A stretch of 61,533 nucleotides of DNA, counting the filler. It is 9 parts of 9 records of this genome, joined end to end, with 100 filler letters (N's around TTAATTAATTAA, not from the genome) between each part and the next. Parts side by side here need not be neighbours in the genome. Positions count along the whole stretch, not along the records: positions 35,604 to 42,556 come from SRR7504441_1194; 8 more parts are not named here. One strand, given 5' to 3'. The notes beneath the pieces were generated by a model. The model saw only the letters and a list, made by a program, of their open reading frames with translations, was not told the DNA's origin and did not search any database. Of this stretch, positions 11,501 to 56,905 are shown piece by piece. Numbering within the stretch: position 1 is the stretch's first letter; each line of letters begins with the position of its first letter. The position numbers were made by a program, and so were the translations under genes.

Positions 11501-14039
11501 GCAAGAGGTGTTCCAGGAAGGGCTGATGATCCCTCCGACCAAGCTCTACTCCAAGGGCGTGCTCAATCTGGAGGTGCAGCAGCTGCTGCTCCACAATGTG
11601 CGGATCCCAGAATGGAACCGGTGCGACCTCAAGGCGTTGGTGGCCTCGTGCGAGGTGTGCAAGATCCGGGTGCAGCAGCTGTGTGCTCGATTCGGGCGTG
11701 AGACATACTTACAGTCGCTGGCGCTGCTGCTCCGGCGGAGCTGGAGCTCTATGCACGAGATAATCCAGACAATGACTGCGCCGCTGCATACCGAGTGGAG
11801 ATACTACTTTGAAGACTACGTGGATGATGATGGGCAGGGGCACGGCCCGCACCGGATCTCGTGTTCGATGGACAGGGTCTTCCACGAGACCACGCAGGAG
11901 TACCATATACACTTTGATTTCACTGGGACCGACCCGCAGACCCCTTCGGCCATCAACCTTTACCAGAACATCGAACAGTTCAAGATGCTAGTCGGCTCAC
12001 ACCTGACCCATTTCTTTGACCCAGAGATGAGCCCGAACGATGGATTCTATCCACTGATCGAGGTGCATATCCCCAAAGGCACCATCCTCAATCCGACCTT
12101 CCCAGCAGCTGTCTCCTGCTCAGCACCAGTGCTTGGCCGGCTGCTCGACGTGGTAAATGGTTTGCTTGGACAACACGCACCCGAGCTCATGTGTGCGGCT
12201 GGATACAGCGACCAGCCCACCCTCCAGTACTATGGGCAGGACGACGGCCGTGGCAAGCCATTCATGTACTACGGAGTGCTGTATGGCGGCGTCCCAGGCA
12301 AGCCAGTGGGTGATGGGCCTGACGGGCACTCGATCTGGCCGTCATACTCAAGTGTGCCTAACGAGTTCCTCGAGCGCGAGCTGCCCATCCGAGTGGAAGC
12401 TCGTGACACGGTGGTCGACTCAGGCGGTGCTGGGCTGCACCGCGGTGGCAACGGCGTCAAGCTGGTGTACAGGCTGCTCGCAGACGGGTGCATCAGCATC
12501 CACGACGACCGGTGGCTCACCAAGCCGTGGGGCGTGAACGGCGGCCGGGCAGCGCAGGGCTCGTCCAAATACATCTACAGGGTGTGTGCTGATGACCAAA
12601 TGAGTACAGATATGATGGAGCTTGTCCCGGCCAAGTGTGACCAGTTCCCTGTCAAGGCAGGCGATGTGCTCGTGTTTGTCACCTGGGGCGGCGGCGGCTG
12701 GGGCAACCCTCTGGCTCGGGATGTGAATCTAGTCTGGCAGGACATGAACTCCGGCCTGATCAGTATTCAGGGCGCACGGAACAATTATGGTGTAGTGATG
12801 ACTAAGCAGGATGGTGTCGACCTCAGGGAGACGGCAGCTCTCCGCCAAAAGCTCCAGAAGGAGCAGCTCGCGATGACTGAAGTGCGCAGGCACCACGACT
12901 TAGCGTTCGGGCCACATGCCAGCTTCGATTTTGGATGGAAATTCGGGATCCGTGCCACAGAGGAGAGCGTCACCGAGCTCCGGGCCAACTGCAAGGCCAA
13001 CACTGGCTATGACCCACCCCAGCCGAATGTGGTGCCAGTGCCAATGATTGCGGACCAGCCCGGGCAGTACGCTGGTGGAGCAGGGTTCCAGCCTTATGGG
13101 AGTCCCGGCAAGTGGACTCCATATGATGAGGGCGACCCTGTCTTGGCGGGTGCCTATGTACCTGATGCTATAATCGCTGAGCCAATGCCAATCCCACCGG
13201 ATCCGCATGCACCACACATTCCATCGCGGCCGCAACTGCCCACACAACGGCCACCAATCCCGATAACCGAATTCCCAATCCCTGATCTGGCGCCTCCTGA
13301 GGAAGTTCAAGAATCGATTCGGCTGAGTCCTGTGATGATGTCACCACCCGTCGAGCGGTCTCTGGCTCCAACAACAATGGCGCCGCCGTCGGACTGCCGG
13401 CTCCCTAGTCCACCAAGAGACGTGGATCCCAATCACCCATGGGACCCTCAAGTGTACTTTGACCCGGCCGCCCGCGCAATGGCTGCCCGAGCATCACCCT
13501 CTGTGGTCGCCTCGCCCGATCCATTGATGGCTGCCCCAACGGATCAACTTCTAGAAATCCCAGTTGCCACCAGCCCGCCACGGAAGCTCCGCGATGGCAT
13601 GATGGCAGACATGTCAGCTGGGCCACTCCTAGGAGCCGCTCGCCCGCGCCAAGAGTCTCCCATCAGCACGCGGGACCGGTTGGCAGCGCGGATGGCCCAG
13701 CCCTCACTCAACGCACGGGTGAGTCTCGAAGAGAAGCGGTCAATAGCAGAGGCGCGAGCCCTGGCCGAGGTGGCGCAGCACATTGTGCCACGGCGGTTTC
13801 ACGTGAGTGGGTTCGGGGACCGGTCTGTCTCACCAGTACGACAAGGCTCACCAGTACGGCAGCCCGACCTGAGGGCCACATCCCCACAGGAGAGTTTCCT
13901 CCAGCGCCACATGCGGGCTCAGCGAGAGGCAGTTGACAGGCCATCGGAGGCCATCCCGGGGCTTGACGGTCAGGCTCAAGATACTGGATTGAGCTCACTG
14001 CCCACCTCTCCGCTTAGATCTCGGTTCAGCGTCAACTAA
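8594..14039 (+). CDS. Fused hydantoinase/5-oxoprolinase A+B family protein with Pro-rich extensions (intron 9191-9230, about 1801 aa)
   Basis: A part: DVGGSFTD, HGTTVATNAILE, DMGG, GPESANANPGPACYGRGG and FGGAGPLH. B part: GHMTDVGG, QEGLMIPP, DSGGAGLHRGG and TWGGGGWG. A 40-nt GT-AG intron joins the two ORFs. Confidence 0.9.
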
Positions 14040-15217: not shown

Positions 15218-15317
15218 NNNNNNNNNNNNNNNNNNNNNNNNNNNNNNNNNNNNNNNNNNNNTTAATTAATTAANNNNNNNNNNNNNNNNNNNNNNNNNNN
15301 NNNNNNNNNNNNNNNNN
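15218..15317. other. Artificial contig linker
   Basis: N44-TTAATTAATTAA-N44, with stop codons in all six frames. Confidence 0.98.
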
Positions 15318-18300
15318 GGCGGCTACAACCTCTAAGAGCCTTGCGCACGGCCGGCATCTTCTTAACTGGCTCGACAAGATCATCAAACATGTCGGCGTAG
15401 CGCTCCAGGCTGTTGCGGCTGCGAAAACGCGAGTCGCCGTCTGTAGGTTGTAAGGGCGGCGTCTTTTTCCATGGTGGCATGCTCTGCGACTTTCTCCGTC
15501 CAGGTCGAGCCGTGCTAGAACAATCCTTGAGCGCCTGAATGATCTTTTTGGGTTCCTTGGTGCGGAAAGTGAGGGTCTGGATCCTCTGTTTGCTGTCACA
15601 TACCTCCAGCCCGAAGGAATCCTGAGAGGACAGCCACGTTTGAATTCGGTCAAAAGGATAGAAGTGAATTTTCTTTTGAGTCTCAGAGTCGAGCAAATTT
15701 ACACCTGGCTTTGCAACACAGATAATAACTCGGCTACTAATTTGTCTGATCGTCTGATCAATGGGTGCGACGACAAATTCTTGCGTTTTTCCGGCGTTTT
15801 GAGTCTGGTCACGGACTGGCTTGAGAGATTCTATGTCGTGCTGTGGGTTTTGAAGTGGTGGATACGTGACCTGAGGCTGCTTAGGTTTATGCTTTTTGGT
15901 CCAAGGGGGTATGGGCTGAGTGGTGTGGAATTCGTCGTGGACTGCCTTAGTTGGATGTGGCACTCCAGGTGATAATGGATCTCCTTCATCTTTACTCGGT
16001 CCACCGCCAAGGGAATCCTGGCCAGGTTTTGCACTCCGCTGCTTAGGCTTAGTCCGTTCAGCCTTTTTCTTCATGTGATCGTTTACAAACACTTCCGAGT
16101 CCCAGCGACTCGGCTGAAAAGAACGCTCATCCAGTCCAATAAGACCTGCACCCCAACTTGGCTCAGCTTTCTGATTCGACCAATCGGGTTTCGCAACCAC
16201 GCCCTGGAAGACGGGAGCTGGCTGTTGCCGGTTCAGCCCACGCTTCTCCGCGAGTAACTCTGCAGCTCGAGCTTTTCTTTCACCGAGCTTGTATCTTAGT
16301 GATTGAATTTGTTGCTCTAACTGCTTATTCTGACGCTCAGTTTTCTTCAGCAGCACCCGTGCATTAGCAAGCTCAAGATCCTTGTTGGATGCACATGATT
16401 TCAATTCTTGTGCCTTTCGCCGAATATCGATAGCGGCCTGTGTTGCCTCTTTGTCGCTTGAGTCCAGTTGCACAGCGGCGGCTGCCTTTTCGAGCAGCTC
16501 AGCAACTTTTATCAACTCAGCTGCATCCGACGTCTTCAGCGTTTCTAACTTTTCTAGTGTAGAGAAAACTTGCATAGCCATGGATTCTGGGAGTGAAACC
16601 GAGAGGCTTACGACCTGCTCAATCACATCCTGCTTCACTTCACGAAGAATTGGGTTCTTTCGTTTCTCGGCTGGTGGGGCTTGGCCCTTGATGCTCCCTA
16701 GGATTTCACACCACGTCTCATGCACCTCACCGCCATCCTTCTCAATGTTATCCCAAAACTCCCGTAGTAGCCACAATAGTTTCCGAAACTCAGACCTGGC
16801 CTGCTCAATCTGTGCCTGCTCTTCCATGATAGTCTCCTCCTTTTTCAGCAGTTCAGTCTCGAGCGCAGTTTGATCCTCTCCGTGCAGATCCTCAAGCGAC
16901 TCGAACATAATCTCAATTTGGACAACTTGAGCTTCAAAAGCGACAATGGCTTCTGAGTTGCACACCTTGCGAATCTGTACCAAGGCAGCCTTTAATAGTC
17001 GTGTCAAATCGGCTGCAGACGTGCTCTCTGCTGCTACTGCTTTTGGACTGCCAAGGGGCTGTTCAATGACCGCAGTTGGCAGTTGTTCAGCCGACGAAGA
17101 GCTGCTTGCCATGAGATGAGGAAGTTCCTGCTGTTGCTTTTGCACAATCACAGGCTGTTTCAATTCTGCTGGCGAGGCACTGACTCTGTTCTCAAGCAAA
17201 TCATTGCTCTTCCCCTCATCCGCTACTTGCCTAATCACCGACCTCTCTTTGGTACCAACTTGTTGTTCTGATACAATCGCTGGAGCACTGGTTGGCTCTA
17301 TTTCTTCTCGTGAGGGGAGCTGACCTAATGTTTGCTGTTCTACTGCAGGCTTAGCTGCTCTTTGGGTAGAGCTTGAGGGGGCATTTCCCGCCTCCAAAGC
17401 CGCACTAGGTTCTGATGGGCACTGGTTCTGAAGTCCTAGAGCAGCAGCGTTTCCAGGCTCTGTTTCGTCAGTCCAGGCTAATTTGGAGTTTGATTCCTTG
17501 CTTCTGTTCTCAAGTTTATGGACGAGGCTGAGAGCATGACTCCAACTAATAAGATTGTCTGCAAGGGCCAATTCTTTGGCGTCAATCAAATCTTTGCCCT
17601 TAGCATGTTCAAGTTCTGCCAGTTTCCTTCCCTTTCCAGGGACCATTCCTCTAATGATCTTTAGTTCCTCATCCCAGGCAAGGCGTTTGGCTGCTATCTG
17701 CAGGGACAGCCGGGAATGGGTGAACTCAGCCTCCAAATCTTGGAGCAGTGCAATGATTGCTTTAGAGGAAGGGTGCTGCATCGATGCTGCATTTATATTA
17801 ATAATTTCCTCCTCAGCAGCTGCAACTGCCACCCGCGACTCCTCTAGCTGCTCATTTGCTCCGTGAACAGCTGTCTGATGCTGCTTCAGCTCGGTTTTGA
17901 GCTGGTCAATCTCCACTTGCTGATGATAAGCTGCTTGCTTCTGAGCTTCCAATTGCTGTTGTAGCCTCACCAATGCCTTGTCTTGATCTTGCTCTGCCTC
18001 GAGACTCGACAGCGCAAGTCTCCCTGCTGGCTTCTCCCCCTCGGCTGGCTTTTCCACCTCTGCTGGCTGCTCACCCTCTGTCGCCAGCTCAAGTTCCTCT
18101 GCTATCAGTACCACATCAGCACGTGCCTGAGAGCTGGTATTTTCTTCTTCTAGATGCAGCCTGTGGACGTCTGCCGCAGCCGCCTCAATTGTTTGTTGCA
18201 ACTCTGAAGCCTTTGCTCCAGCATCCATTGTACCCTTGGCATGCTCTTGCATTTGTGCTGCTGCAGAAGCTGCCTTCGCCTTTTCAGCAGAAAGCTCACC

Positions 18301-20210
18301 TTCCAGCTGCGCCACTCTTGCCCTAAGATCCTCAGAAGCAGCAACACTTGAGCCATCAACCTCACTTGCCTTCACTTCCAGCGAGGTCACCTACAGAGTG
18401 TAATACTCAGCACCAGCATCCCCAACTGTGATCAAAAGTCAAGGCATTACTTGGGCTGAGAGCTCCATGCACTTCTGCTTTGCAGCCAGCGCCTCTGCCT
18501 CCATGTGCTGCACTGCCGCACCGCTTTCTTGCTGGAGTTTAGTCACCTCTTTGTGTCTTTCCGACTTTTCATCTGCAAGCGCTAGCTCAAGCATCACCAC
18601 CTGACCACTGCATGCCTGGCACTCTTGTATAATGGCTATGCTGACCTTATCCTCTGCACTTAAGGCCACTGCAGTTAGTCTGGTTACCTCACGTTTCAAT
18701 TTATCGGCTGCAGACTGGCATCAATGTAAGGGCCAGTTTGCAGTTTGGCTCGCACCTCATTCTTATCACGCAAAATCAGTGCCTCCTGCAGCAGAGACTC
18801 CACTTGGTATGTCAATCTAGCATTTTCCTTCTCTGATGTCAATTTGAGCTCCTCTAGCTCTTTTCCAGCTGACTCGCGCTCTTGTTCCCGGACCTGAGAG
18901 AAAAAGTTGGAACAACTATGCTGATTGGAACTACCCGTTGCTCTGCCCCGGCCATCTCTCGAGAAAAGTGGAGCATTTTATGTTGGCACTGCTGAATTTC
19001 CTCTGCTTGTCCAACTGCTTGCTTTCGATACATATCCATGCGGTCCCATACCTGCTCCTCAACTTTCAGCTCCGTCTAATGCTTGAGAGTCAGTCACCTG
19101 TGATAGAGTCCTCCCAAGTTTGCCCCCACAGGTTCGGAGTCCAAGGAGCACATCTTCAATCTGTTCCTCGACAGCAGTTGCAATGTCTTCGGTATCATCT
19201 CCCCGTGACTGGTCGATCATCTCACTGATCTCCTGAGCATGCTGAAAAAGTTTTCTTTCGCCTGTTGGCCAGTCACAAAATTTCCGTGGTTGAATCCAAC
19301 CTACCCTCGTTTGCCACCTTCTTTGCACGTTCAGACACTCCGCTGAACATTTCGATAAATTCTGAGGTCAGGTAGTCCCCAGTCTGCAATAAGGTTCTAT
19401 CGTCTCTACCACTGTGATAATAGTCACCTCAGTCATAGTGTTCTGAGCCATAAAGCGCTTGAAGCCAGCTGGGTCATTCAACGAGTCTGGCGGCTTCCCA
19501 TCAGCCTGGCTCCCCTCCTGATTCTTTAGCTGTCGCAGCTGCCCCGACGTGGTGAGTGCAGGGTCATGAAAGCATGCTGGTTGTGCACCTCCCGTGTTAT
19601 GTCTGTCATTCGCTTTCGTCTCTCATCAAAGTCTTCAGGGGCATCTCCTGGCACTGTGCTCAGCTGTGCCGCAGTGACGACTAGGTTTAAGCAGCGAGGC
19701 AGCACAAATCTGCACGACGCTAGGACGCAGGGCCTCACCCTCTCTGGGCTGCAGGTGCTCCGCAAACCAGTCGTCGCTCTCGTCTCCCATCACCATCATC
19801 GCAATCTCCTCCTCCAGGATCCCGTAAGAGCCCTCGAAACTGCGCTACAGCTGGCCCCAGCCACCGGCAGCCGCCACACTGGTCGCAGGCCGAATCGACC
19901 CGATCTTTGATCTCGTGGAACTCTCGCAGAATTCTGTCCTTGGGTGGAGTGGCCACCTGGGCTCCCAGGTCGCAGGTGCTCTCCTGCGGGGGGGCACCTT
20001 TGCAGCTGCAGCTGCGTTCCTATTGCCCTTCGACTGCCGGGCGATCCGCTCGAGTTGCCTCTGCTGCCTGCAGGCCGCCGGCTGTGGCTGACGGCAGCGG
20101 CGGGCTGACCACTGCGTGCTGATCTCCTTGCGCTGCTTGCGGGGCATGAAGAGCAGCTGCTGGGGCGGGATTTCGCTCACCATGCCGCTCTCTGCCTCGC
20201 GCCCAGTCAT
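15318..20210 (-). CDS. Large coiled-coil protein with a C-terminal FERM-C/PTB-like (PH-fold) domain; 3' partial, multiple introns
   Basis: Long E/Q/K/A-rich ORFs are joined by introns such as 18391-18450, 18715-18755 and 18894-18934. GVNLLDSETQKKIHFYPFDRIQTW resembles FERM F3. The 5' exon structure is only partly resolved. Confidence 0.6.
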
Positions 20211-20231: not shown

Positions 20232-20331
20232 NNNNNNNNNNNNNNNNNNNNNNNNNNNNNNNNNNNNNNNNNNNNTTAATTAATTAANNNNNNNNNNNNN
20301 NNNNNNNNNNNNNNNNNNNNNNNNNNNNNNN
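20232..20331. other. Artificial contig linker
   Basis: N44-TTAATTAATTAA-N44. Confidence 0.98.
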
Positions 20332-27342: not shown

Positions 27343-27442
27343 NNNNNNNNNNNNNNNNNNNNNNNNNNNNNNNNNNNNNNNNNNNNTTAATTAATTAANN
27401 NNNNNNNNNNNNNNNNNNNNNNNNNNNNNNNNNNNNNNNNNN
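27343..27442. other. Artificial contig linker
   Basis: N44-TTAATTAATTAA-N44. Confidence 0.98.
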
Positions 27443-28982: not shown

Positions 28983-31900
28983 TCAATAACCGAGGCCAAG
29001 ATCACAAGGTTTCTTCGCACCTGACATCGCCGCTGCTAAAGTTTTCACCACAGCGGCAGCCCTCTCCTCCTCTATGCCGGGAAGTCCAATCCCGCCACCA
29101 TAGTGCGGCGTCATCAGGCAATTTTCAAGTGTGTGGAAATCGAATTTGCTCGAACGGAAGTTTTGTGTGCTGGCATCGTCTGCAATGCCCATAACTCCGG
29201 GTTCCTGCCACCACACCTGCCCCACTGTCAGGTGTGCGTTAATTAAGGGCTTTTTTACGTCAGCAGCATAGCCCAGCCGTCCACTACTGACATGTTGCCA
29301 CAGGGCCTCCTCATCAACCAGCTCAGCCCTCGCAACATTGACGATGTTGCACCCGTCGGGACAGGCCTGCAGCATGGCGGCATCAAGCAGGCCGCGTGTC
29401 TCTTCAGTGAGCGGTGCAGTGAGGATCACTGCATCAGCTTGGTGCAATAAATCGCGCAACATGCCCGCAGGGTGTACTGTCACACCTTGGTCGCACTCTG
29501 GCTCCACGACACTCCTCCGTGTGGCCAGTACTGTAACGCCCATCGCTTGAAGCGTTCGAGCAACGTGCCAGCCCACTGACCCGAGGCCTACCACTACAGC
29601 TGTCTGACAGTACACCAAGCGGCACCCAGATTCAGGGCTCTGTGAGCGCTTCTTAAAGCTCCAGTCACCAGAGCGGCATGTTCGATTTGCCGTCATGAGT
29701 CGCCTGTTGAGCGCCAGCAGTAGCATGAGTGCAGTCTCCCCAGTGGCTCTGCAGTTGTGGTGCACATTGTACACGCCCCCAGGGACTCCGGCAGATTCTT
29801 CAACTGCAGACTTCACGCTGGTGGGGATGCCTGCATGTGGAATCACAATCATGCCAGGCTTGTGCTGTCTGATCCACTCAGCCTCGATATTCTTGCCAGG
29901 TATGAGTGCGGCTGTCAGGTTGGATGGCGGCATGGCTGGGGGACAGGTTACTGTCCAGTCAAGCCCTTGTGACTGCACTTGCTCGGCTACCAGGCCGGCC
30001 AGAAGTGGCCAAACTCTGGCTGCGCTTGGGTGGACATATAGCTCAACTCTGCTGGAGGCTTTGGTGCAAACGAGCTGCCAGGCAACAAGAGCAAGCACCA
30101 CACGACAGGCCACAGCATCTGGCCCGGAGCTTACATCAAACATATCTTGGGCATCCTGCAGGTAAGGGTGCAACGAGCCACCAGCCAGCACTCGCTCCAG
30201 CGCATTGGTACATGAGACACAGAGGGCTTGACCAGCAGCTAGTTGAACCTCGTCGATTCCCCCCAACATTGTCTGGGCTGGTCGCTTCAGCCCTCTGACC
30301 AAGGCTAGCTCATCCACTGTGGGAGCCTTGAGGTCCAAGTGCAACCTCACCAGAGCCATCAGCAGCAAGGAATGAGCCTCAAGCCGCTCACTAGGCTCAA
30401 GCTCGCCCGCTTCGGAGCAGCACAGCACTTGAGGATCACCGATGCACCCCAGCTCATCCACAAGCCGTTGTCGCATGTGCTCACTCCCACTGTCAGCCGC
30501 CAATCTGCAAGGAGCGGCCGCCTGATACTCGCTGGCAAGCAACCCGATGGCTTCAAGCTCTGAGTCGACCCAAGGAATGTCCGAGCCCCTGCCCCTCGCT
30601 TCCAGCTGCAGCCGGACACAGCGGCGCGCCAGCTCGAGCAAGTGGAGCCGAGTGCCGATGTGGTTCAGGTTGTATCGCATGACGCCGCCGTGCGCTGGAG
30701 TCCTCTCGAGGCCATACACCTCTCCTAATGGACCAGGGCACTGGCAGAGCACAGCCTGAATCTGCCTCAAGTCCTGGCCACTGAGCTGCAGCTGAGCTGC
30801 AGCATGGGTGCTGTCCAGGTGACGCGAATCGCGCGCGCCAACAATGAGACACCCAACCGCCGGTCGGGAGAGGACCCATGCTGAGGCGACCATGGCGATC
30901 GTAGCACTGTGCCGATTCGCCACCTGTCGCAGCACCTGGAGCAGATGCTGGAACCGTCCCCATCCGCCAAACTCCTGTATGATGAGCGCGTACTTGGTAA
31001 GTGACCGGTTCTCTTGCGCAGCGGCCAGGTCGGGGGAGTCGACCCCGAGCCAACGATCTGTCAGAAAGCCTCCCGCGAGCACACCGTAGCATGCCAGCCG
31101 GGCGCCGCAGTCCAAACAGAGCTGGACCATCCCATCGCTCTCCGGCCGCCGGTCCAGCAGCGAGTACTGTACCTGACTTATAGCCACAGGCACACCCGCA
31201 TCGACCATCTCTGCCATCCTGCGGGTGCTGAAGTTGGTCAACCCGATTCGCCTCACCAGCCCTTCTTGTTTGAGCCTGGTGAGTGCCAGAGCCGCCTGCA
31301 CGTAGCTGCCCGCGCCATACTCCCACCAGTGGAACTGCACCAGATCCAATTGCTGCTGCCTCAACCGGTTGAGCGACCGCAGCACAACAGCCGCCACGTG
31401 CTCGGGAGTGAGGTCTCCAAGCACACGGCGGTCAGGGACTAGCTTAGTGTGGACCCGGAGCGCCGGCTGCTTCCCGCGCGCCGCGTGCACTCCGATCAGC
31501 TCCTCGACCCCGCTGTAGATGTCTCCGCAGTCCACACAGTGGTACCCAGCCCCTGCCGCCGAGTCCAAATCTGCCACAGCTCTCTCGCTGTCGAAACCAC
31601 CATGGTGCCCGGTCGACAGCTGCCAGCCGCCCCGTACAACCACCGGGCAGTTCTCATACCCGAGCCCGTCAGCCCGTCGGATCGGCCCGGGCCTGAGCTG
31701 GTGCTGCAGCCGGCGCGCGTGCATTGTCATGATCTGGCCCATAAAGTCGAGGCTCGGCCGCTCAGCCGCACACGCCACAAGCTCCATCCCGCGCGGCCAC
31801 AAGGCCCGGTCGCAGCAGCCCAGCATCCACAGCCCGCAGTAGTACCGGGCGTAGGCCGGGGCGTCCTCCCTCGCCTGCCGAGCCGTGAACCCGTCAGGCA

Positions 31901-32351
31901 TCGGCCCAGCCGGCAGCTCCGCGGCGGCATCCCCGGCTCGCAGCACCGCCTCCACCCGCTCGGCGGCTGCATCGCCCCCGTCGGCCGGCCCGGAGCGATA
32001 CAGCGCCAGCAGCGCGTGCATCACCGGGCGTGGGTCCGCAACCGCAACAGGCAGCTCAGCGGCGGCGGCGGCAGCGGCCACCGGTCGGCGGGCCCCGTCA
32101 GCCACGTCGGCCTCCACGCGGGAGAGCAGCCGCCAAATGAGCTCCTCGGCGTCCTGTCCGTTGACGGCCAGGTCCTGCTCGAACTGGGCAGCCGCCTCCA
32201 CGAACCGACCGGCCAGGTATCCAGCCAGCCCCCGCTGCCAGAGCCGAGCACGACCCGCCGGGCCGGCCGCCGCCCACAGCCCGTCGAACAGCCGCACCGC
32301 CCGCCCGATCTCGCCGGCCGCCAGCAGCTCGGCCGCCTGCTCGGCTGTCAT
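28983..32351 (-). CDS. Three-domain fusion: NlpI-like TPR, aldo-keto reductase and D-2-hydroxyacid dehydrogenase (intron 29217-29258)
   Basis: TPR: LWQRGLAGY...QFEQDLAVNGQDAEE. AKR: DCGDIY, VHTK, QFHWW, GLTNF and QYSLLDRRPE. Dehydrogenase: GLGSVG, PLTEETRG, NVAR, DVWWQEP (after splicing) and TPH. Confidence 0.85.
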   Translation of the reverse strand: MTAEQAAELLAAGEIGRAVRLFDGLWAAAGPAGRARLWQRGLAGYLAGRFVEAAAQFEQDLAVNGQDAEELIWRLLSRVEADVADGARRPVAAAAAAAELPVAVADPRPVMHALLALYRSGPADGGDAAAERVEAVLRAGDAAAELPAGPMPDGFTARQAREDAPAYARYYCGLWMLGCCDRALWPRGMELVACAAERPSLDFMGQIMTMHARRLQHQLRPGPIRRADGLGYENCPVVVRGGWQLSTGHHGGFDSERAVADLDSAAGAGYHCVDCGDIYSGVEELIGVHAARGKQPALRVHTKLVPDRRVLGDLTPEHVAAVVLRSLNRLRQQQLDLVQFHWWEYGAGSYVQAALALTRLKQEGLVRRIGLTNFSTRRMAEMVDAGVPVAISQVQYSLLDRRPESDGMVQLCLDCGARLACYGVLAGGFLTDRWLGVDSPDLAAAQENRSLTKYALIIQEFGGWGRFQHLLQVLRQVANRHSATIAMVASAWVLSRPAVGCLIVGARDSRHLDSTHAAAQLQLSGQDLRQIQAVLCQCPGPLGEVYGLERTPAHGGVMRYNLNHIGTRLHLLELARRCVRLQLEARGRGSDIPWVDSELEAIGLLASEYQAAAPCRLAADSGSEHMRQRLVDELGCIGDPQVLCCSEAGELEPSERLEAHSLLLMALVRLHLDLKAPTVDELALVRGLKRPAQTMLGGIDEVQLAAGQALCVSCTNALERVLAGGSLHPYLQDAQDMFDVSSGPDAVACRVVLALVAWQLVCTKASSRVELYVHPSAARVWPLLAGLVAEQVQSQGLDWTVTCPPAMPPSNLTAALIPGKNIEAEWIRQHKPGMIVIPHAGIPTSVKSAVEESAGVPGGVYNVHHNCRATGETALMLLLALNRRLMTANRTCRSGDWSFKKRSQSPESGCRLVYCQTAVVVGLGSVGWHVARTLQAMGVTVLATRRSVVEPECDQGVTVHPAGMLRDLLHQADAVILTAPLTEETRGLLDAAMLQACPDGCNIVNVARAELVDEEALWQHVSSGRLGYAADVKKPLINAHLTVGQVWWQEPGVMGIADDASTQNFRSSKFDFHTLENCLMTPHYGGGIGLPGIEEERAAAVVKTLAAAMSGAKKPCDLGLGY

Positions 32352-32547
32352 CGTGGCCCTGGCAAGCCGGGCTGGCAGCTCCCCCGAAGCTCCGCGCGAC
32401 TGAGAAAAACCCGGCCGTTGACCGGTCTCGCGACGTGAGCGCGACCGGATCACGCGTTACAGTGGTACGGCTCACACGTCGCTGCTCATCACCCTTGCAG
32501 CAAGCAGGTGTCGCAGCCTAGGCTTGCACCAGCGCCCGACCAGCCAG

Positions 32548-35503: not shown

Positions 35504-35603
35504 NNNNNNNNNNNNNNNNNNNNNNNNNNNNNNNNNNNNNNNNNNNNTTAATTAATTAANNNNNNNNNNNNNNNNNNNNNNNNNNNNNNNNNNNNNNNNN
35601 NNN
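35504..35603. other. Artificial contig linker
   Basis: N44-TTAATTAATTAA-N44. Confidence 0.98.
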
Positions 35604-35733
35604 CAGCATTCTGCTTTGCTCATTGCCCGAACATTAGAATCGCGAACAACCGACACCGCCACGCCCAGGAGGTGCTGCTGGCTCTTCGACGAGAGCTGCC
35701 GAGCCAGGGGGGGCTGCAGGCTGAGCTGCGAGC

Positions 35734-37440
35734 ATGTTCGGAATGCCGCCGCCGTTCGCGCACCGCGGCAACCCAATGCCCAACTGGCACAACCCCTTCG
35801 CCCCCCCGCCCGGCAACCCCGGCGGCGCCCCGGCCGGCCGGCCCTGCGGCGGCGGCGTGGTGCGGCTTGTCGACTGGCTGCGGGGGGCGAGCGCGGGGCA
35901 GGGCGATAACGGACGAGTCAAGTGGCGCAAGACGCTCGGGCGAGGTGCCGGCCGCCGCCGTGTGGCCGCGCAGCGGGGGCGCAGGGAAGTTTGGTGAGAC
36001 CTGGGAGGTGGAGTACAACGGCCGGGTGTGTGCGGCCAAGGTGCCGGCGGCGGGCCGGGCGGTCGGTTGATTGGCGTTGAAGGTGACCTGCTGCCCTGAG
36101 GGCTTCCGGCCCATCGAAGTCGAGATGCTCCAGCGGGCTCAGGTGCCCCAAAACCTCGACGGTGTGCTGTACCTGACGCGACCGGTCGCAGGGCCCGTTC
36201 ACGTGCAAGTACATCGGCAAGGAGGAGCGCACGCCCAAGGCGCCGCCCGGTTCCGGGCTGGTGCGACGGCCGGCTGCAGGGTACGTGCCTGTTGATGGAG
36301 CTTTATCCTTCGAACCTGGAGGAGCAAATAACAAGCCAACGGCACCCGGATAAGCGGGCCCGTGCCGGCATGCCGCGCGAGCAGTTCCTGCGCTCCCTGG
36401 AGCAGGCGGCTGGGCTGCGGCGGCTTGGCTGAGCGGCGTGGCAGATCACAGAGGGGCTGTCGTGGCTGCATGAGCGGCACATAATGTTCGGGGACCTCAA
36501 GCCCGGTGATTGTCTCCGCCCCAACCGCTCACTGCCGGCTGCAGACAACCTGCTGTTCGACCCCGACGAGCAGCGGCTGGTGTTTTGCGACTTTGGCGAC
36601 TCACAGGTCGGCTTTAATTGAATTATTCAAGCTGAGCCGAGCTGCAGCAAATGGAGAGCGAGCAGGCCGGCCGGCAGTTTAGGAACCCAGAGGAGGTCGG
36701 ATGGTGCCTCCGCCGCCGGTTGATATTCGGTTGATTTCGGTTGGCAGGGGCCACCCGAACTACCACGCGGTGCCGGACGTGATCTCCAAGCAGCTGTGGC
36801 AGCAGAGCGACATGTGGATGCTCGCGCAGACGGCCTACCACATGTGGACGGGCGAGATGCCCGATCAGAACCCGGCCATCCTCCCTGCCCGGTGAGCCGG
36901 CACCATCAGGCGGCCCGGCAGCCGGCGGCGCAGGATACCTCTCCGGAAGACTCTTCTCAAGTGTTACAACTCTAATCCCTCCAAGCGGCCGTCGGCCAAG
37001 GAGTTAGTCCAGCTGCTCCGCGAGTGAGCCCGGCGCTTAACGCTTATTGATCCGGCTGTAGGTACGACGCGGCCTCCGCCTCCGAGGAGGAAGTAGAGCA
37101 GGAGCAGGTAACAGATTCTAACTGATTTTAACGAACAATTGATGGTGTGGCAGGAGGAGCAGCAGCCGGAGCAGAAGCCCCGGGCGAGGCGGCGCGGGTC
37201 CTTGGCAGATCCACGGTGCGGCGGAGGCCGGTTGGGGCTCGAGTGGAGGGCAGGGGGGCACCGGGGCAGTACGGGCATGCGCCGGGAGGAATGGTAGGGA
37301 TGATCCACCAGATCCATGGGCGGCAGCAGAATGTGAGCGAAGGGATGATCCACCCCGGGATGATGCAGCCGATCCCCCAGGGGATGCAGATGCACGGAAT
37401 GATGCAAGGCCGGCCAGCTCGCCGCCGGTCCGTGTATTAG
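35734..37440 (+). CDS. Protein kinase (388 aa) split by 13 mini-introns
   Basis: Introns: 35860-35901, 35945-35984, 36041-36082, 36143-36191, 36240-36279 (GC), 36406-36444 (GC), 36506-36544, 36607-36647, 36704-36747, 36892-36933, 37024-37061, 37108-37153, 37216-37253. The spliced 1167 nt gives LGRGKFG, CAAK, LLMELY, FGDLKPDN, DFG, SDMW and PSKRPS. Confidence 0.85.
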
Positions 37441-37745
37441 ATGTATTAGGCGGCTCGGAATGGATTCGATGCGGCGGATGAGCTTATTAAGTGGAACACG
37501 GCTAATGTTAATAACGGGTTTATGACTTGTTTTGTACGATCAAAAGCGCTCATGATACCGGATTAATGCAGTTTAAAAGCTCTTAATTAATGTTGAACAG
37601 TGTTGGATTCTAGCCTCGTCATGGCCTCGTAGCCTCGAGATCTGGATTGATGGACGGATGGATTAGTGATGGGATTAGTATTAGTAGTGGCTCTGTATCG
37701 GAATGATTAAAGCTCGGTAACTAACTAACCAACTATCAATGTCGT

Positions 37746-39250
37746 TCACGAACTATGATACGCTTGCACTGGCGCCGGCCGCGGTGCAGGTCTAGCGGCA
37801 ACCTCGGCTTTCACCCGTTCGATGTCCGCTAGGAGCCGCTCCTCCATCGAAGGGGACCTGGCCGCACCATGAGTCAACGCACCCTCGCTCAGCCTCACCG
37901 GCCTAGGTGGTGCCACAGCTGGGTCGGTGGACGTGGCTCGGCCACCTCCAGTTCTATCTTATACTCAAGCTTCTCGATCTCAAACTGCCAGTCCACTCGA
38001 GCCAGCCAGGCCGGAGCTACCTTGAGCTTCCCGTCTGTTGGGCTGGCCTCCAATTTGAGCTGGGCCACCTCCAGCTGGGCCTGGAGCAGCTCCAGCTTCA
38101 GCTGAGCTCGCTCAGTTGATGCTTGACGCTCAGCTGCCGCGTACTTGGAGAGCGCTGAGTGCACAGTGGTCTGAGGGCCCGATCAGGCCCCCACTGGCAC
38201 GTGCATGAGCACCTGGCGCTCCTCGGTCTGCCCACGATCCACCAAGTCGTTCATGTAATTCTCCAGACTTCGAGTGCCTGACCACTCGCTTGGCCACGCG
38301 TGCACGAGGCGTGACCTGCGGCGAGCGCGATGGCGCCGAGCATCAGATCTGTGACGGCCTTTGGGCTCTCGCACTTTAGGATCCTTTCGTGTCCGATGTG
38401 CCGCGCCCACTGATCGCAGATAGCAGGGTCCTCGTTCGCCCGATGAGAATACTCTTTCTTAATTAGAAAAACCTGCTCTCGCTACATAAGGCAGCGCATG
38501 CCCCGCCAGTCGTTGCACTCTCACCTCGTACTTTTGGCGCAGCTGGCGGAACAACTCGGCGGTGGGCACATCCTCGTTCTTGCCACCACAGATTCGATCG
38601 ATGTTCAGCCCGAGGCATGTCTCGTTCATATATTCGTCAGCTGTGAAGAGCAGAATCGGCTTGCTGGTGGCGTTCGGGCACCGGACGCTGCCTAGACCAT
38701 CAGCATGTGCTGTGCTGGCGGTGGAACCGGTTACAGAAGAACCAAGCGGCCATTTCGTAAGCCTCGTGGGCGCTTGCTGACCCGCCGCCCCCGCCGAGTC
38801 CCAGCAGCGCGAGCTGGCTATCCAGATCGTTCCCTGTGCCCACGGTGGGCGCCGTGGGGCAGGCTGGGCGCACCCTGCGCGAACTCGGTCACGGCGAGTG
38901 TGGCCTGGTTGAGGTTGTAGTCGGCGGTCTGAGCTGAACAGCTCAGCCGGGGCGGCCGCTGGGCGCACCGCGACGAACATGACTGCTGGATCCTCGAGGT
39001 AGCCTTGGAGCATCATTTGGCCGTAGAACATGGGCAGCTTGTCGAAGACGACTTTGGGCCAGTCCCCCATGCTTCCTGTGACGTCCATGGCGCAGATGAT
39101 CGGATTGCGCGCGGAGCAAGTCACCACCCGGTTGAATGGGTCTGCCTCCGGATGAACCTTGTTGTTGCGCCGGAAGGCCTGGCTCGATGCCGCCGAGTAG
39201 GTGCTCGCTGAGGTGTTGATCTCGCGCGAATCGAAGTAGCCGCCTCCCAT
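37746..39250 (-). CDS. vWA-domain protein with C-terminal coiled coil (391 aa, 8 introns)
   Basis: MIDAS-like DVTGSM, GGGGG...EAYE and LFTADE. Introns: 38929-38968, 38834-38873, 38688-38727, 38473-38524, 38278-38315, 38171-38212, 37985-38020, 37858-37898. The spliced length is 1176 nt. Confidence 0.75.
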
Positions 39251-39377
39251 CTCTTCCAAGCCACACTGCCACACCGCAAACACGAAGATTTGCCGTTACT
39301 ACCGCTACTGCAGGAGGTTAACGGCACGGCCGAGCGCAGCACACCGGGCCCCGGCTTTACACGCGGCTAGCTATGCG

Positions 39378-42347
39378 ATGAGCAATCATCGGGGCGAGGA
39401 GCACGAGTACTACCGGCGGCACCGCGTCACCGGCGGGCCCGCCCCGCTCCCCCCGCCGGTGCGCAGCTTTGGAGCGGCCCCCTTCCCCCGGCTGCGTCCG
39501 GCGCTCCTGGCCACTGGCTGGGAGGCCCCCACCCCGGTGCAGGCGGCCAGCTGGGCGGCGCTCGCAGCCGAGCGAGACCTTGTGGCCATCGCCCAGACTG
39601 GGGCGGGCAAGACGCTCGCCTACTTGGTCCCGGCGCTGCATGCGTGCCTGCTCGCCGAGGCCGGGGCTCCCACCGCGCTGGTGCTGGCACCCACCAGGGA
39701 GCTGGCCGTCCAGATCTACCAACAGGCCGAGCAGTTCGGGGGCCGCGACGCCCGGTGCGTTTGCTGTTGCGGCGGGCGCGATCTCGAGCCCCAAATGGCC
39801 GCGCTGGCGACTGGTAGCCGGATGGTGGTAGGGACGCCCGGCCGGCTGCTCTACCTGTGCGGCCGGGGGGCGGCTGACCTGACTAAGGTGCGGTTCTGGG
39901 TGCTGGACGAGGCCGACCGGATGCTAGACATGGGCTTCGCCCCGCAAGTGACCTCGCTTGCAGCTGACCTGCCTCGAGACCGTCGGACTGCGCTGCTGAG
40001 CGCCACTTGGTGCTCTGAGCTGGATGAACTGTCGGAGCAGCTGCTGAGCAAGCCGCTGCGCTTGTTCATCAACCAGTCGGACCAGACCGCTGCCACGCCG
40101 TGCAGGCAGATCGAGCAGGCGGTGGAGGTGCTCCCTGCGGAGTCAAAGCTCACCCGACTGCTCCAAGCGCTCGCCCAGCTCCCCGAGGCCAGCAAGGCTC
40201 TAGTGTTCGCCAACACCAAACGAGGCTGCGACGAATTGGCCTCTCAGCTCCGCTGGAAAGGGTTTGCCGGGGCTGACGCGATACACGCCAACCGAACCCA
40301 GTATGAACGGGAGGTGGCTCTCACAGCCTTCAAGTCTGGAGAGTCTCCGGTGCTGGTGGCTACCGACGTGGCGGCCCGTGGGATCGACGTGAGCGGGATC
40401 GCGCTCGTGGTGAACTGGGACTTCCCCTGCACGCTCGGAGCGGCCGGGGTAGAGGACTACGTTCACAGGATCGGGCGGACGGCGAGGGCCGGGGCGACAG
40501 GCAAGGCGCTCACCTTCTTCCCGACCAAGCCCGACGACAAACACCCGGCCAACTCGCACCACCTTGTCAAGCTGCTCCGGGCCTGCAGCATGCCGGTATC
40601 AGACGCGCTAGCGAGACTGGACCGAGGCGACACTGTCTCGGCCCGGAACCAACGTAAGCACGGGAAGCAAATGCAGATGGTGGCTGTCAGCGGCTCAGCC
40701 GCACAAAGGGCCCGCCGATTCGACTTAGTGAAGGAGCTGCAGGCCGCGGGGGACGCGCGCGATCGGGCAACGGCCGAGCAGGTGTGGGCTCGATTCGGGG
40801 CTGAACAGCTACCTCATTCGGTGTATAGCTTTGCGGCCGGCGTGAAGGCGGCAGTGAGCTGTGGGGATGTGGCGAGGGCCGCGGCAATGGTGGCCCAGAT
40901 GAGTTCAGAAGGGCTCCAGCCGAATATCGTAGTGCACACCACGCTGCTCAAGGGGTATGCAGCGGTCGGTGACATGGCCGGTGCTGAGCGCCAAATGAGC
41001 GAGATGCTTTCAAGCGAATCTGCAATCGATCTGCGGGCAGCCAACACCTTCCTCCGAGGGTGCGTCAGGGTAGGAGCAGCCGCGGCCGCGCTGCGTGTGT
41101 TCAACAAAATGGAGTCCGAGTGGGGGCTACAGCCCGATGCAACTAGCTACAAGTATGTCTCACGCTTGCTCGCCCAGACGCTTCAGTACCAAAAGCTAAA
41201 GAAGATGCTAAGCAAACTCCGAGCCGCCGAGCGCAAAGCCGATAAGCAGGCTGCCCGCGTGCTTAGTGAGTTGGGGAATTGGACCGCCATGCACCTGGAC
41301 TTAGCGGGGGCGGCGGCTGTGCTTGGCAAGTTCAAGACAGCCCGAGCCAATCTGGATAGAGCATTACAAGTGGCTGCAACCAAGCGGCCCGACACGCTGT
41401 TCGATCTGACGCGCAGGGAGGAGCTGGAACGGGCAGCGCGGGTGTGGGAGCCTTTCGTGGCGGCGGCCGAGCTTGCGCCGGGGATTGAGCGGCTGTTCGC
41501 CCGGGTGCTGCTGTTTGGTTCGCAGCTTGGACTCGAACAGGCGGGCGAGTCGGGGCCTGAGGTGGCAGCGGGGCTGGTTCGTCAGCTGCAGGAAACTTTC
41601 GGGCTCGGGCAGATGGGCGCTGCGCTGGAGGCCGAGGCTGCGAGGAGGATACACAGCTGCATTTCGGAGCAGGGGCAGCTCCGGTGGAAGCGAGTGTTCA
41701 GCGCCAAGCGGAAGCGCGGCAACGGGACTGAGCTGCCTGTCAAGATGGAGATTTGCTGCGGCAGTGGCGACTGGGTGGTGGCACAGGCGGCTGCGGAGGC
41801 TGGGGTGGCCAACTGGGTGGCAGTTGAGCTTCGACACGACCGGGTGCACAGCGTGTGGCAGAAGATGCTAGCCCGCGGTCTCGACAATTTGAGCGTTGTG
41901 TGTGTCGACGCCAGCAGGCTGCTCAAGCAACACGTCAAGCCTAGCTCGCTTGCGTGTTGCTGCATCAACTACCCCGAGCCGCCGCACTGGACTGGTAACG
42001 CGCAGGCTGAGAGCATGTTGCATTTGCTCTCGCCCCAATTTTTCCGGCGGGTGCATGCGGTGTTAGAAGCTGGCGGCAGGCTCACTATATTATCCGACAA
42101 CCAGCAATACTGCCAGTCACTGGCTGCGGAGATGGGTAAGCTGCGCGGCCGTGGGGCGCACCCGCTGTTTACAAATACACGGCTGGATGAAACTAGCCAG
42201 CATGGAGCGTTCCAAGAGATTGAGGTGCATTGTGGGCTTCCGGGAGCAGAAAGTGGGCATATAGTTCAAGAAAGTTCGCAATTCGACCGCTTTTGGGCAA
42301 ATGGACAATATACAAACCGTTATTTTATTGCGGTAAATAAAGCTTAG
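39378..42347 (+). CDS. Fusion of DEAD-box RNA helicase, PPR repeats and TrmB-like tRNA m7G methyltransferase (989 aa, single ORF)
   Basis: Helicase: Q motif, AQTGAGKT, PTRELA, TPGRL, DEAD, SAT, TDVAARGID and HRIGRTAR. About three or four PPR repeats (e.g. PNIVVHTTLLKGYAAVGDMAGAERQMSEM). TrmB: MEICCGSG, VAVELR, NYPEP and ILSDN. Confidence 0.9.
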   Translation: MSNHRGEEHEYYRRHRVTGGPAPLPPPVRSFGAAPFPRLRPALLATGWEAPTPVQAASWAALAAERDLVAIAQTGAGKTLAYLVPALHACLLAEAGAPTALVLAPTRELAVQIYQQAEQFGGRDARCVCCCGGRDLEPQMAALATGSRMVVGTPGRLLYLCGRGAADLTKVRFWVLDEADRMLDMGFAPQVTSLAADLPRDRRTALLSATWCSELDELSEQLLSKPLRLFINQSDQTAATPCRQIEQAVEVLPAESKLTRLLQALAQLPEASKALVFANTKRGCDELASQLRWKGFAGADAIHANRTQYEREVALTAFKSGESPVLVATDVAARGIDVSGIALVVNWDFPCTLGAAGVEDYVHRIGRTARAGATGKALTFFPTKPDDKHPANSHHLVKLLRACSMPVSDALARLDRGDTVSARNQRKHGKQMQMVAVSGSAAQRARRFDLVKELQAAGDARDRATAEQVWARFGAEQLPHSVYSFAAGVKAAVSCGDVARAAAMVAQMSSEGLQPNIVVHTTLLKGYAAVGDMAGAERQMSEMLSSESAIDLRAANTFLRGCVRVGAAAAALRVFNKMESEWGLQPDATSYKYVSRLLAQTLQYQKLKKMLSKLRAAERKADKQAARVLSELGNWTAMHLDLAGAAAVLGKFKTARANLDRALQVAATKRPDTLFDLTRREELERAARVWEPFVAAAELAPGIERLFARVLLFGSQLGLEQAGESGPEVAAGLVRQLQETFGLGQMGAALEAEAARRIHSCISEQGQLRWKRVFSAKRKRGNGTELPVKMEICCGSGDWVVAQAAAEAGVANWVAVELRHDRVHSVWQKMLARGLDNLSVVCVDASRLLKQHVKPSSLACCCINYPEPPHWTGNAQAESMLHLLSPQFFRRVHAVLEAGGRLTILSDNQQYCQSLAAEMGKLRGRGAHPLFTNTRLDETSQHGAFQEIEVHCGLPGAESGHIVQESSQFDRFWANGQYTNRYFIAVNKA

Positions 42348-42556
42348 CATCTTATTACTGAGAGCTGTTCGGCCGCCGGAGCACATCGGCGATGCTGCTG
42401 TCCTCGAGCAGCTGCACGGCCGGATCTGGTCAAGCTGCACAGCCGGCAAGCAGCACTACCGGTAGGCTGGATCCTAGCACTACAGTAACTACTCGTAATG
42501 TTACGTAACTTACGTAACAAATTCCCTTTTGAGTAACTTTTGTAACGATTTGCCTT

Positions 42557-42656
42557 NNNNNNNNNNNNNNNNNNNNNNNNNNNNNNNNNNNNNNNNNNNN
42601 TTAATTAATTAANNNNNNNNNNNNNNNNNNNNNNNNNNNNNNNNNNNNNNNNNNNN
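42557..42656. other. Artificial contig linker
   Basis: N44-TTAATTAATTAA-N44. Confidence 0.98.
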
Positions 42657-46354: not shown

Positions 46355-46454
46355 NNNNNNNNNNNNNNNNNNNNNNNNNNNNNNNNNNNNNNNNNNNNTT
46401 AATTAATTAANNNNNNNNNNNNNNNNNNNNNNNNNNNNNNNNNNNNNNNNNNNN
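46355..46454. other. Artificial contig linker
   Basis: N44-TTAATTAATTAA-N44. Confidence 0.98.
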
Positions 46455-49972: not shown

Positions 49973-50072
49973 NNNNNNNNNNNNNNNNNNNNNNNNNNNN
50001 NNNNNNNNNNNNNNNNTTAATTAATTAANNNNNNNNNNNNNNNNNNNNNNNNNNNNNNNNNNNNNNNNNNNN
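49973..50072. other. Artificial contig linker
   Basis: N44-TTAATTAATTAA-N44. Confidence 0.98.
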
Positions 50073-56805: not shown

Positions 56806-56905
56806 NNNNNNNNNNNNNNNNNNNNNNNNNNNNNNNNNNNNNNNNNNNNTTAATTAATTAANNNNNNNNNNNNNNNNNNNNNNNNNNNNNNNNNNNNNNN
56901 NNNNN
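56806..56905. other. Artificial contig linker
   Basis: N44-TTAATTAATTAA-N44. Confidence 0.98.

Follow-up and report, generated by a model that had tools for sequence, protein, structure and literature searches.

A DEAD-box helicase joined to a PPR solenoid and a TrmB-like methyltransferase in one gene of a marine protist

Introduction

The DNA considered here is a window of 61,533 nucleotides, by which we mean the whole stretch that was analyzed, and which is made up of nine concatenated contigs of a binned assembly. One of these contigs, at positions 35604 to 42556 (6953 bp), carries an open reading frame (ORF) on the plus strand, 39378 to 42347, that encodes a protein of 989 amino acids (aa), called P0001 below. 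In an original prediction, made from the letters alone, this protein was described as a DEAD-box helicase, a pentatricopeptide repeat (PPR) array and a TrmB-like methyltransferase in a single chain. We examine this architecture by means of family models, structure prediction, database searches, phylogeny and metagenome reads. As judged from its conservation, the ORF is a genuine single gene of a marine protist and not an assembly chimera.

The PPR-TGM subfamily was described by Manna and Barth (2013, BMC Res Notes 6:525; PMC4029402), with PtcE of Dictyostelium as its founding member and 22 proteins in total. It is defined there by three to seven PPR motifs along with, at the C-terminus, a tRNA guanine-N7 methyltransferase (TGM) domain whose nearest relative is chlamydial TrmB. 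The original prediction had linked the ORF to these proteins, and the link is upheld by the domain order and by the chlamydial-TrmB-like character of the TGM domain. On these sequence grounds, P0001 is a member of a helicase-bearing branch of the PPR-TGM subfamily. The words 'helicase' and 'DEAD' do not occur in PMC4029402, and a description of a helicase-PPR-TGM fusion was not found in the literature that was covered, which included passages of a 2026 dinoflagellate review and of two diplonemid papers. The earlier statement that no version with an N-terminal helicase is described is in keeping with this. The three-domain fusion appears to be undescribed as far as the literature search reached, while PPR-TGM itself is known.

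Results

The ORF starts with ATG and runs for 989 codons and a stop codon, as a single exon as far as can be seen from the DNA. Its translation has no internal stop, in agreement with the uninterrupted frame originally reported. Upstream of 39378 the frame is open only to 39240, where a stop is found, and between 39240 and 39378 there is no earlier ATG, GTG or TTG in frame. The gene is situated wholly inside its linker-bounded contig.

The N-terminal part of the protein (residues 10 to 416, positions 39405 to 40625, plus strand) is a DEAD-box helicase core with N- and C-terminal flanks of the Dbp2/DDX5/DDX17 type, as identified by Pfam, by sequence matches in the PDB and by Foldseek. Both RecA-like domains expected of a DEAD-box (SF2) helicase are matched by family models, namely DEAD at residues 52 to 217 (E 7e-42, 143.4 bits against a cut-off of 26) and Helicase_C at residues 257 to 372 (E 3e-25, 89.2 bits against a cut-off of 23.5). 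All helicase motifs had been reported as intact, and this was confirmed by alignment to Dbp2. The strings PTPVQ (51-55), AQTGAGKT (72-79), PTRELA (105-110), TPGRL (153-157), DEAD (177-180), SAT (208-210), LVFANTK (275-281), ARGIDV (333-338) and HRIGRTARAG (363-372) were located, which we take to be motifs Q, I, Ia, Ib, II, III, IV, V and VI, with minor variants in AQTGAGKT and HRIGRTARAG.

In the PDB sequence search, the helicase part is matched over residues 10 to 416 by yeast Dbp2 (8ark, E 1.3e-85) and human DDX17 (6uv0, E 1.9e-77), and the next family is DDX46 (E 5e-67). A five-residue insert, LGAAG at 353-357, precedes motif VI; a similar insert is found at the same place in P0013, a relative that is described below. 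A full-length AlphaFold2 model of the protein was also used, with a predicted local distance difference test score (pLDDT) of 84.4 and a predicted template modeling score (pTM) of 0.62. The top ten Foldseek matches of this model are all Dbp2 or DDX17, and the superposition on the RNA-bound closed form of DDX17 (6uv4) has a TM of 0.84, normalized to the target, and a root-mean-square deviation (rmsd) of 2.9. Judging from sequence and model, the helicase is of the Dbp2/DDX5/DDX17 type and has a complete core, this subfamily being assigned by the PDB matches and Foldseek and not by a phylogeny with named references. The junction to the next domain (residues 417 to 440, positions 40626 to 40697, plus strand) is basic, has a pLDDT of 51-63 in the model, and aligns with P0013.

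The middle of the protein is an alpha-solenoid (residues 441 to 707, positions 40698 to 41498, plus strand), which is recognized by Pfam, by the predicted models and by the family alignment. P-class PPR proteins have helix-turn-helix motifs of about 35 residues in tandem, and motifs of this kind are picked up here by the PPR models. PPR_2 matches three stretches (45 bits against a cut-off of 30), PPR_3 scores 30.5 bits (cut-off 25) and PPR_long covers residues 496 to 631 (29.6 bits, cut-off 27); the PRORP PPR model PF17177 is also matched above its cut-off. In the predicted structures, about seven helical hairpins extend across residues 441 to 707; the sequence is PPR-like in about five of them (approximately 447-623), which are followed by two to three more. 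The 'three or four PPR repeats' of the original prediction were thus too low a count, and a stretch that had been taken for a linker is modeled as further solenoid hairpins.

A separate model of residues 430 to 780 has a pLDDT of 89.8 and a pTM of 0.87, and its top Foldseek matches are all PPR proteins. Using VIA-align, it superposes on PPR10 (4m57) with a Z of 17.3 and an rmsd of 3.3 over 216 aligned residues, and on the PPR domain of tRNA-bound PRORP1 (6lvr) with a Z of 14.1 and an rmsd of 3.5, 190 of 193 residues being aligned. A specific kinship with PRORP was considered and dropped, as other PPR proteins score higher (Z 15-17 versus 14.1); PRORP is not present in the Foldseek rows shown for this model. 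When 22 relatives are aligned, their PPR tracts are collinear and show conserved repeat starts such as '..NTFLRGC', and the two code positions of the middle repeats are occupied by the same residues in fused and helicase-less members. By the PPR code, these positions would presumably read roughly A-G-U.

The C-terminal part begins with an N-terminal extension of the methyltransferase domain (residues 708 to 786, positions 41499 to 41735, plus strand), which is seen in the model and contains a 'RLRW..F' pattern conserved in relatives. It is followed by the TrmB-like TGM domain proper, dependent on S-adenosylmethionine (SAM), at residues 787 to 989 (positions 41736 to 42344, plus strand), where Pfam Methyltransf_4 (PF02390) matches residues 787 to 921 (E 1e-21, 77.7 bits against a cut-off of 24), and which is recognized also by TrmB matches and family conservation. 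Helicase, PPR and TrmB-like domains are therefore all found above their Pfam cut-offs in one protein, as had been claimed, and P0013 is collinear with it. Among PDB sequences at E up to 1, the TGM domain is matched by bacterial TrmB only (E. coli 3dxx, 9.5e-07; S. pneumoniae 1yzh, 0.02), and no Trm8 or METTL1 chain is matched at that level.

The conserved strings of the domain are EICCGSG (791-797), VELRHDR (816-822), VDAS (843-846), NYPEPP (864-869), LSDN (905-908) and SQFDRFW (967-973). In the alignment to E. coli TrmB (3dxx), 'ffpdpwh' is opposite 'inypepph', meaning that the Asp of FPDPW (D144 in E. coli) is a Glu in P0001. The EICCGSG string and the YPEP in place of FPDPW had both been pointed out before; they are indeed present, but they are not peculiar to this gene, since PEPP is found in 34 of the 35 aligned relatives, the exception being P0126 with PQPP. 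The basic stretch after the motif, 'hkarhnkrr' in E. coli and PKRRHAKNR in Clavichlamydia, is HWTGNAQAESMLH in P0001, in which the H151/R154/R155 set is not found. At the T179-D180 pair of E. coli, LSDN aligns with 'matd' and 'ATDD', such that the Asp is kept and the Thr is replaced by Ser. The score with the NCBIfam TrmB equivalog TIGR00091 is 49.8 bits, below its cut-off of 112.65, and still lower scores are obtained with the other TrmB models.

A study of E. coli TrmB (PMC10130221) helps to place these differences. There, alanine substitutions at R26, D144, H151, R154, R155, D180, T217 and E220 reduce the activity to below 10%, and those at D144, R154 and R155 abolish multiple-turnover activity. 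The T179-D180 pair is proposed to hold the target guanine, and E. coli without trmB is reported to be sensitive to peroxide. In the family of P0001, on the other hand, the G-x-G region and the ELRHDR, GDA, PEPP, SDN and C-terminal FDRFW strings are near-invariant across 35 divergent relatives. This conservation at the SAM site and the catalytic site argues for an active enzyme. As read from the alignment, PEPP and the neighboring changes are family traits under selection, and neither decay nor a quirk of this gene.

A pattern scan of 185,579 prokaryotic species genomes gave one confirmed locus, the 232-aa TrmB of Ca. Clavichlamydia salmonicola. It is important to note that the patterns were those of the eukaryotic clade, which limits the reach of the scan, and bacterial TrmBs as a whole are not ranked by it. 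The TGM domain of P0001 is 29% identical to this enzyme over 189 aa (E 7e-29), which itself retains FPDPW and the basic stretch. The sequence comparisons suggest that the domain was derived from a bacterial, chlamydia-like TrmB, and this agrees with the chlamydial origin proposed by Manna and Barth (2013).

We now turn to the question of whether the fusion is real. An exhaustive HMMER search of 1.84 billion representatives was made, and Pfam was run on 24 of the best 150 matches, namely those that were C-terminal or in several stretches. One of the 24, P0013 (1017 aa), has the identical order of DEAD, Helicase_C, PPR and Methyltransf_4; it is a EukProt transcriptome protein labeled Namystynia karyoxenos and comes from an independent assembly. 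Residues 25 to 988 of P0001 align with it at 41% identity over 1007 columns, both the helicase-PPR and the solenoid-TGM junctions included. Two others (P0014 and P0016) have the helicase parts in a different order, three are multi-helicase proteins lacking PPR or TGM, and the remaining 18 have Methyltransf_4 and no helicase, with PPR motifs in all except P0030. A word-based search with residues 430 to 989 returned 11 proteins, three of which (P0003, P0005 and P0006) carry helicase parts. P0003, a metagenome protein with its N-terminus cut, has Helicase_C, PPR and Methyltransf_4 in the same order as P0001, while P0005 is labeled 'RH20 [Symbiodinium necroappetens]' and P0006 is a Durusdinium trenchii protein. 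Altogether, six relatives beyond P0013 have helicase parts on a PPR-TGM backbone, one from a metagenome and five from dinoflagellates. The architecture search recommended in the original prediction has accordingly yielded both an identical domain order and further fused relatives; those in public databases are uncharacterized and machine-annotated, as the RH20 label, the Durusdinium trenchii protein and the EukProt transcripts illustrate. The ESM Atlas gave no usable match.

In a tree of the TGM domain (53 rows, careful search), all seven fused rows are in one 14-row clade with a support of 97/74, to which P0037 and L039, a helicase-less pair, and five N-truncated rows also belong; the partner of P0001 is P0002 (100/96). 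For this tree, 54 of 108 rows were dropped because a retained row was at least 90% identical to them, and P0167 was excluded; the root of the tree is unreliable, being on the long chlamydial branch, which meets P0126. The phylogeny that had been asked for was thus obtained as far as the grouping of the fused rows is concerned. In a tree of the C-terminal half of the helicase (51 rows, quick search, taking in 45 of 126 non-fused matches), the six fused rows form one group with an SH-aLRT (Shimodaira-Hasegawa-like approximate likelihood ratio test) value of 86, none of 500 shuffles being as low, and P0001 pairs with P0003 (97). A chimera is unlikely because a mis-join would not group the helicase of this contig with the helicases of other fused proteins.

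The reads were considered as well. Eight metagenome runs, all marine or from seawater, contain only 0.05-0.15 of the sampled words. Four runs were mapped on 35604-42556, giving 22 pieces for X1, 25 for X2, 8 for X5 and 5 for X3. Most of these are 31-51-base matches to the DEAD motif region at 39899-39950 with unlike flanks, and come from helicases of other organisms. Short contigs with few differences lie on the 3' half, from X1 at 41430-41805 and 42015-42510, from X2 at 41895-42156 and from X3 at 42084-42234 and 42255-42405; the RNA run X5 has pieces with few differences there too, at 41210-41360 and 41422-41572. Two listed read 'joints' were disregarded, their sides being 21-23 bases at the DEAD motif only. 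The read data neither support nor oppose contiguity or transcription. The check for a chimera that had been called for is in this way answered by the P0013 alignment and the trees, and not by the reads.

The helicase-bearing form is a rare, minority branch of the PPR-TGM subfamily. A scan of metagenome contigs gave 80 PPR-TGM loci, with helicase similarity in the fetched flanks of none of them; more than 1500 nt upstream was available in 47 of the 80, and the five closest loci (L001, L002, L023, L027 and L028) have short upstream parts that are uninformative on fusion. The helicase-less PPR-TGM P0037 (689 aa, 85 cluster members) nests with L039 inside the fused clade of the TGM tree, and L020, a near-copy of P0037, has 4.5 kb upstream with no helicase similarity. 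From this placement, the helicase was probably lost secondarily in the P0037 lineage. For the family as a whole, the fusion most likely arose once and was later lost at least once.

A different arrangement is found in dinoflagellates. P0164 (Gymnodinium smaydae), P0014 (Biecheleria cincta) and P0016 (Cladocopium goreaui) begin with Met and 10-20 residues, after which motif II follows directly. The order is then motif II-III, RecA2 and C-flank, a spacer of about 55 residues, the N-flank with motifs Q, I, Ia and Ib, and the PPR tract. The TGM domain comes after the PPR tract in P0164 and P0014, whereas in P0016, a partial model, TGM is not matched; P0005 and P0006 are gene models that start at the displaced N-half. 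Going by the sequence order, the arrangement resembles a circularly permuted DEAD-box core, or what remains of a tandem duplication.

A separate observation concerns P0002, the closest TGM relative, an ENA metagenome protein with its N-terminus cut. It has a SAM_1/SAM_2 sterile-alpha-motif domain at 911-965, some 480 residues past Methyltransf_4, which could be either a further fusion or a read-through gene model.

Regarding the remainder of the window, the nine contigs have GC contents of 0.52-0.63 and are separated by eight linkers of the form N44-TTAATTAATTAA-N44, at 15218-15317, 20232-20331, 27343-27442, 35504-35603, 42557-42656, 46355-46454, 49973-50072 and 56806-56905. Gene order across the linkers is meaningless, because the contigs are merely concatenated, and where an ORF runs into a linker, that end of it is an artefact (e.g. 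15262..18390). Since the fusion gene is wholly inside 35604-42556, ORFs past the linkers are not its physical neighbors. On its own contig, a divergent 274-aa ORF (38459-39283, minus strand) with no Pfam match starts 94 bp (39284-39377) from the start of the fusion gene, and Pfam gave zero matches on eight other ORFs of 35604-42556. The 3' flank, 42460-42556, is AT-rich and has repeated GTAAC/TTACG-like words close to the contig end. No match was obtained when the window was scanned for Rfam families and tRNAs.

On the other pieces there are genes of clearly eukaryotic character (RPGRIP1-type C2, PTB, ankyrin, EF-hand, an HSP90 fragment and an oxoprolinase), which are bin-mates and not neighbors of the fusion gene. 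On one of these pieces, a 1156-aa ORF at 28983-32453 (minus strand) has an aldo/keto reductase domain at 273-568 and the NAD-binding domain of a D-2-hydroxyacid dehydrogenase at 909-1119, possibly another fusion in the same bin. By part of the fusion gene, the GC content at third codon positions (GC3) is 0.83 (helicase), 0.70 (PPR tract), 0.75 (further hairpins) and 0.63 (TGM domain), as against 0.53-0.74 in other ORFs of the bin. Two genes that lie on separate pieces of the bin have their best named relative in the transcriptome of the diplonemid Namystynia karyoxenos, an argument from best named hits and not from a phylogeny; they are the fusion gene, through P0013, and the oxoprolinase on piece 1 (9231-14036, plus strand), which is 55% identical to its relative there. 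Parts of the sequence occur in runs from marine or seawater metagenomes. By these matches, the source is likely a diplonemid-like marine protist.

Discussion

Taken as a whole, P0001 is best explained as an ATP-assisted, PPR-docked RNA guanine-N7 methyltransferase of the nucleus or cytosol, with tRNA as the most probable substrate, a reading that we hold with somewhat better than even confidence. The PPR solenoid would dock the RNA, replacing the lost basic loop of bacterial TrmB, the DEAD-box core would use ATP to clamp or locally open the RNA and so make the target guanine accessible, and the TGM domain would methylate N7 of that guanine. We propose that the PPR tract takes over the docking because R154 and R155 are required in E. 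coli TrmB (PMC10130221) and the matching basic stretch is replaced in P0001. Such an unwind-recognize-methylate mechanism, already put forward in the original prediction, is plausible from the domain content.

Regarding the substrate, PMC10130221 describes G46 as buried in the tRNA elbow and TrmB binding as seeming to involve partial unfolding of the tRNA. tRNA is the most probable substrate because the PPR tract is conserved family-wide and because G46 is buried and requires this unfolding; for G46 in particular we would put the case slightly short of even, and a target in some other RNA is unlikely. A new structured RNA had been suggested originally as the possible target. The PPR tract, however, is collinear and conserved also in helicase-less relatives from distant lineages, which points to one shared, conserved RNA target, most simply tRNA.

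As to the location, the similarity to Dbp2 begins at residue 10, too early for a classical presequence to fit, and three of the first 10 residues are Glu, in line with the earlier remark that there is no obvious targeting peptide. Short basic clusters are found at the start of P0013 and of the dinoflagellate proteins. On the basis of these N-termini and of the nuclear Dbp2/DDX5 family to which the helicase is closest, the nucleus or cytosol is the most likely location, rather than an organelle.

It is important to point out that a number of observations weigh against this picture. No read piece or contig bridges either domain junction in the four runs mapped on 35604-42556, and contiguity in the source organism rests on the assembly and on conservation. 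GC3 drops along the fusion ORF, in what we read as a gradient. With P0037/L039 nested in the fused clade, at least one lineage can do without the helicase. Glu occupies the place of D144, the matches of R154 and R155 are missing and the TIGR00091 score is below its cut-off, so that strict TrmB function is not assured and the target could differ. Three to five PPRs provide little sequence specificity, and the modeled likeness to PRORP appears non-discriminating, given the higher-scoring PPR proteins and the absence of PRORP from the Foldseek rows shown. Activity, substrate and location are all predicted, and the available part of the founding PPR-TGM paper likewise gives predictions only. Finally, 108 of 121 PPR proteins of D. 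papillatum are predicted to be mitochondrial, according to PMC12699882.

This last point is relevant to the possibility that P0001 is an organellar RNA-processing factor whose substrates, as for most PPR proteins, would be mitochondrial transcripts or imported tRNAs. In its favor, helicases are proposed as RNA-processing factors in the same source, the published PPR-TGMs are of mixed predicted location, several of them mitochondrial (Table 1 of PMC4029402), and a diplonemid is the best named relative for two genes of the bin. The N-terminus described above speaks against it, as do the mere 36 or so residues ahead of the core in P0013 and the lack of an earlier in-frame start before the stop at 39240, although an upstream exon is possible. 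Moreover, the helicase is of the Dbp2/DDX5 type, a nuclear family, and we judge a mitochondrial role to be rather unlikely. It is conceivable, though on balance not likely, that the same enzyme acts on another structured RNA, such as pre-rRNA, small nuclear RNA (spliced-leader RNA included) or internal sites in mRNA, with the helicase recruited for unwinding. The altered pocket, with Glu for D144, the basic loop lost and a score below the equivalog cut-off, would be compatible with this. The Dbp2/DDX5 family acts in pre-rRNA, pre-mRNA and ribonucleoprotein remodeling, and those fused forms that have a name belong to a diplonemid and to dinoflagellates, two lineages that use spliced-leader trans-splicing. 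However, the pocket changes and the PPR code positions are common to helicase-less relatives, one of them a haptophyte, and are not tied to the helicase, a helicase-less member is nested inside the fused clade, and we know of no TrmB-fold enzyme that acts on pre-rRNA, on spliced-leader or small nuclear RNA, or on mRNA.

The same pocket changes raise the question of whether the TGM domain is a catalytically dead RNA-binding module and the protein a targeted DEAD-box chaperone, as the match of D144 is changed, those of R154 and R155 are missing, and alanine at these positions abolishes multiple-turnover activity in E. coli (PMC10130221). Yet the replacement of Asp by Glu is conservative, and active-site strings that are near-invariant across 35 divergent relatives are the pattern of a working site, which makes a dead domain very improbable. 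The remaining explanation is an artefact, i.e. a chimeric contig or a mis-join of a DDX5-like gene with a separate PPR-TGM gene. The assembly is binned and concatenated, the junctions are unbridged by reads or contigs, and GC3 is unlike at the two ends of the ORF. Against this, the ORF is stop-free in a single contig, the junction region aligns with P0013 from an independent transcriptome, and the helicase groups with those of other fused proteins and not with ordinary DDX5 homologues. An artefact of this kind is hardly credible.

The favored explanation, an ATP-assisted and PPR-docked guanine-N7 methyltransferase, gives a concrete idea of how the PPR-TGM family may reach its target, with the PPR tract in place of the TrmB loop and an ATPase, part of a DEAD-box helicase of a well-studied type, that opens the RNA. 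Confirmation would make it a rare natural case of a 'motor + reader + writer' enzyme that modifies RNA with a single chain, a model for reaching buried nucleotides of the tRNA core, and a scaffold idea for programmable RNA methylation. A bolder version, which we regard as decidedly unlikely, is that the helicase-fused branch is an ATP-driven, PPR-guided m7G (7-methylguanosine) writer for a non-tRNA nuclear RNA, such as pre-rRNA or the spliced-leader or other small nuclear RNA of trans-splicing protists. If true, this would be the first case of a TrmB-fold enzyme that has its own motor and acts on a target other than tRNA, and in dinoflagellates the motor would also be circularly permuted. On a more general level, cross-lineage conservation alone can validate domain fusions of uncultured marine protists.

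Comparison with known systems

The closest architecture is that of the PPR-TGM proteins, with which P0001 shares a PPR tract followed by a C-terminal TrmB-like domain, the chlamydial TrmB as nearest relative of that domain, and an occurrence in scattered protist lineages. It differs from them by the complete DEAD-box helicase at its N-terminus and by the lack of the CCCH zinc finger present in some members. With the bacterial TrmBs (3dxx, 1yzh and the Clavichlamydia enzyme), it has in common the Methyltransf_4 fold and the same motif order, with 29% identity to the chlamydial enzyme. The differences are the Glu for the Asp of FPDPW, the replaced basic stretch, LSDN versus 'matd', the sub-equivalog score, and the fact that the domain is embedded in a 989-aa multidomain protein.

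Dbp2, DDX5 and DDX17 are the best solved relatives of residues 10 to 416, flanking extensions included; all core motifs are shared and the model superposes on RNA-bound DDX17. In P0001, however, there is the five-residue insert before motif VI, the long N-terminal region that Dbp2 has before chain residue 94 is absent, and PPR-TGM takes the place of the usual C-terminal tail. In PRORP, the protein-only RNase P, a PPR domain grips the elbow of the tRNA and is joined to a catalytic domain. The likeness to PRORP lies in the combination of a short PPR tract with a catalytic domain that acts on tRNA (presumably so in P0001), together with the PF17177 match above its cut-off and the 190 of 193 superposed residues, but the catalytic domain of P0001 is a methyltransferase and not an NYN nuclease. 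In yeast Trm8-Trm82 and human METTL1-WDR4, finally, the catalytic subunit that makes tRNA m7G46 depends on a helper to handle the tRNA. The chemistry would be the same in P0001, whereas the helper functions would be built into the chain, as PPR tract and helicase, instead of being provided by a WD40 partner.

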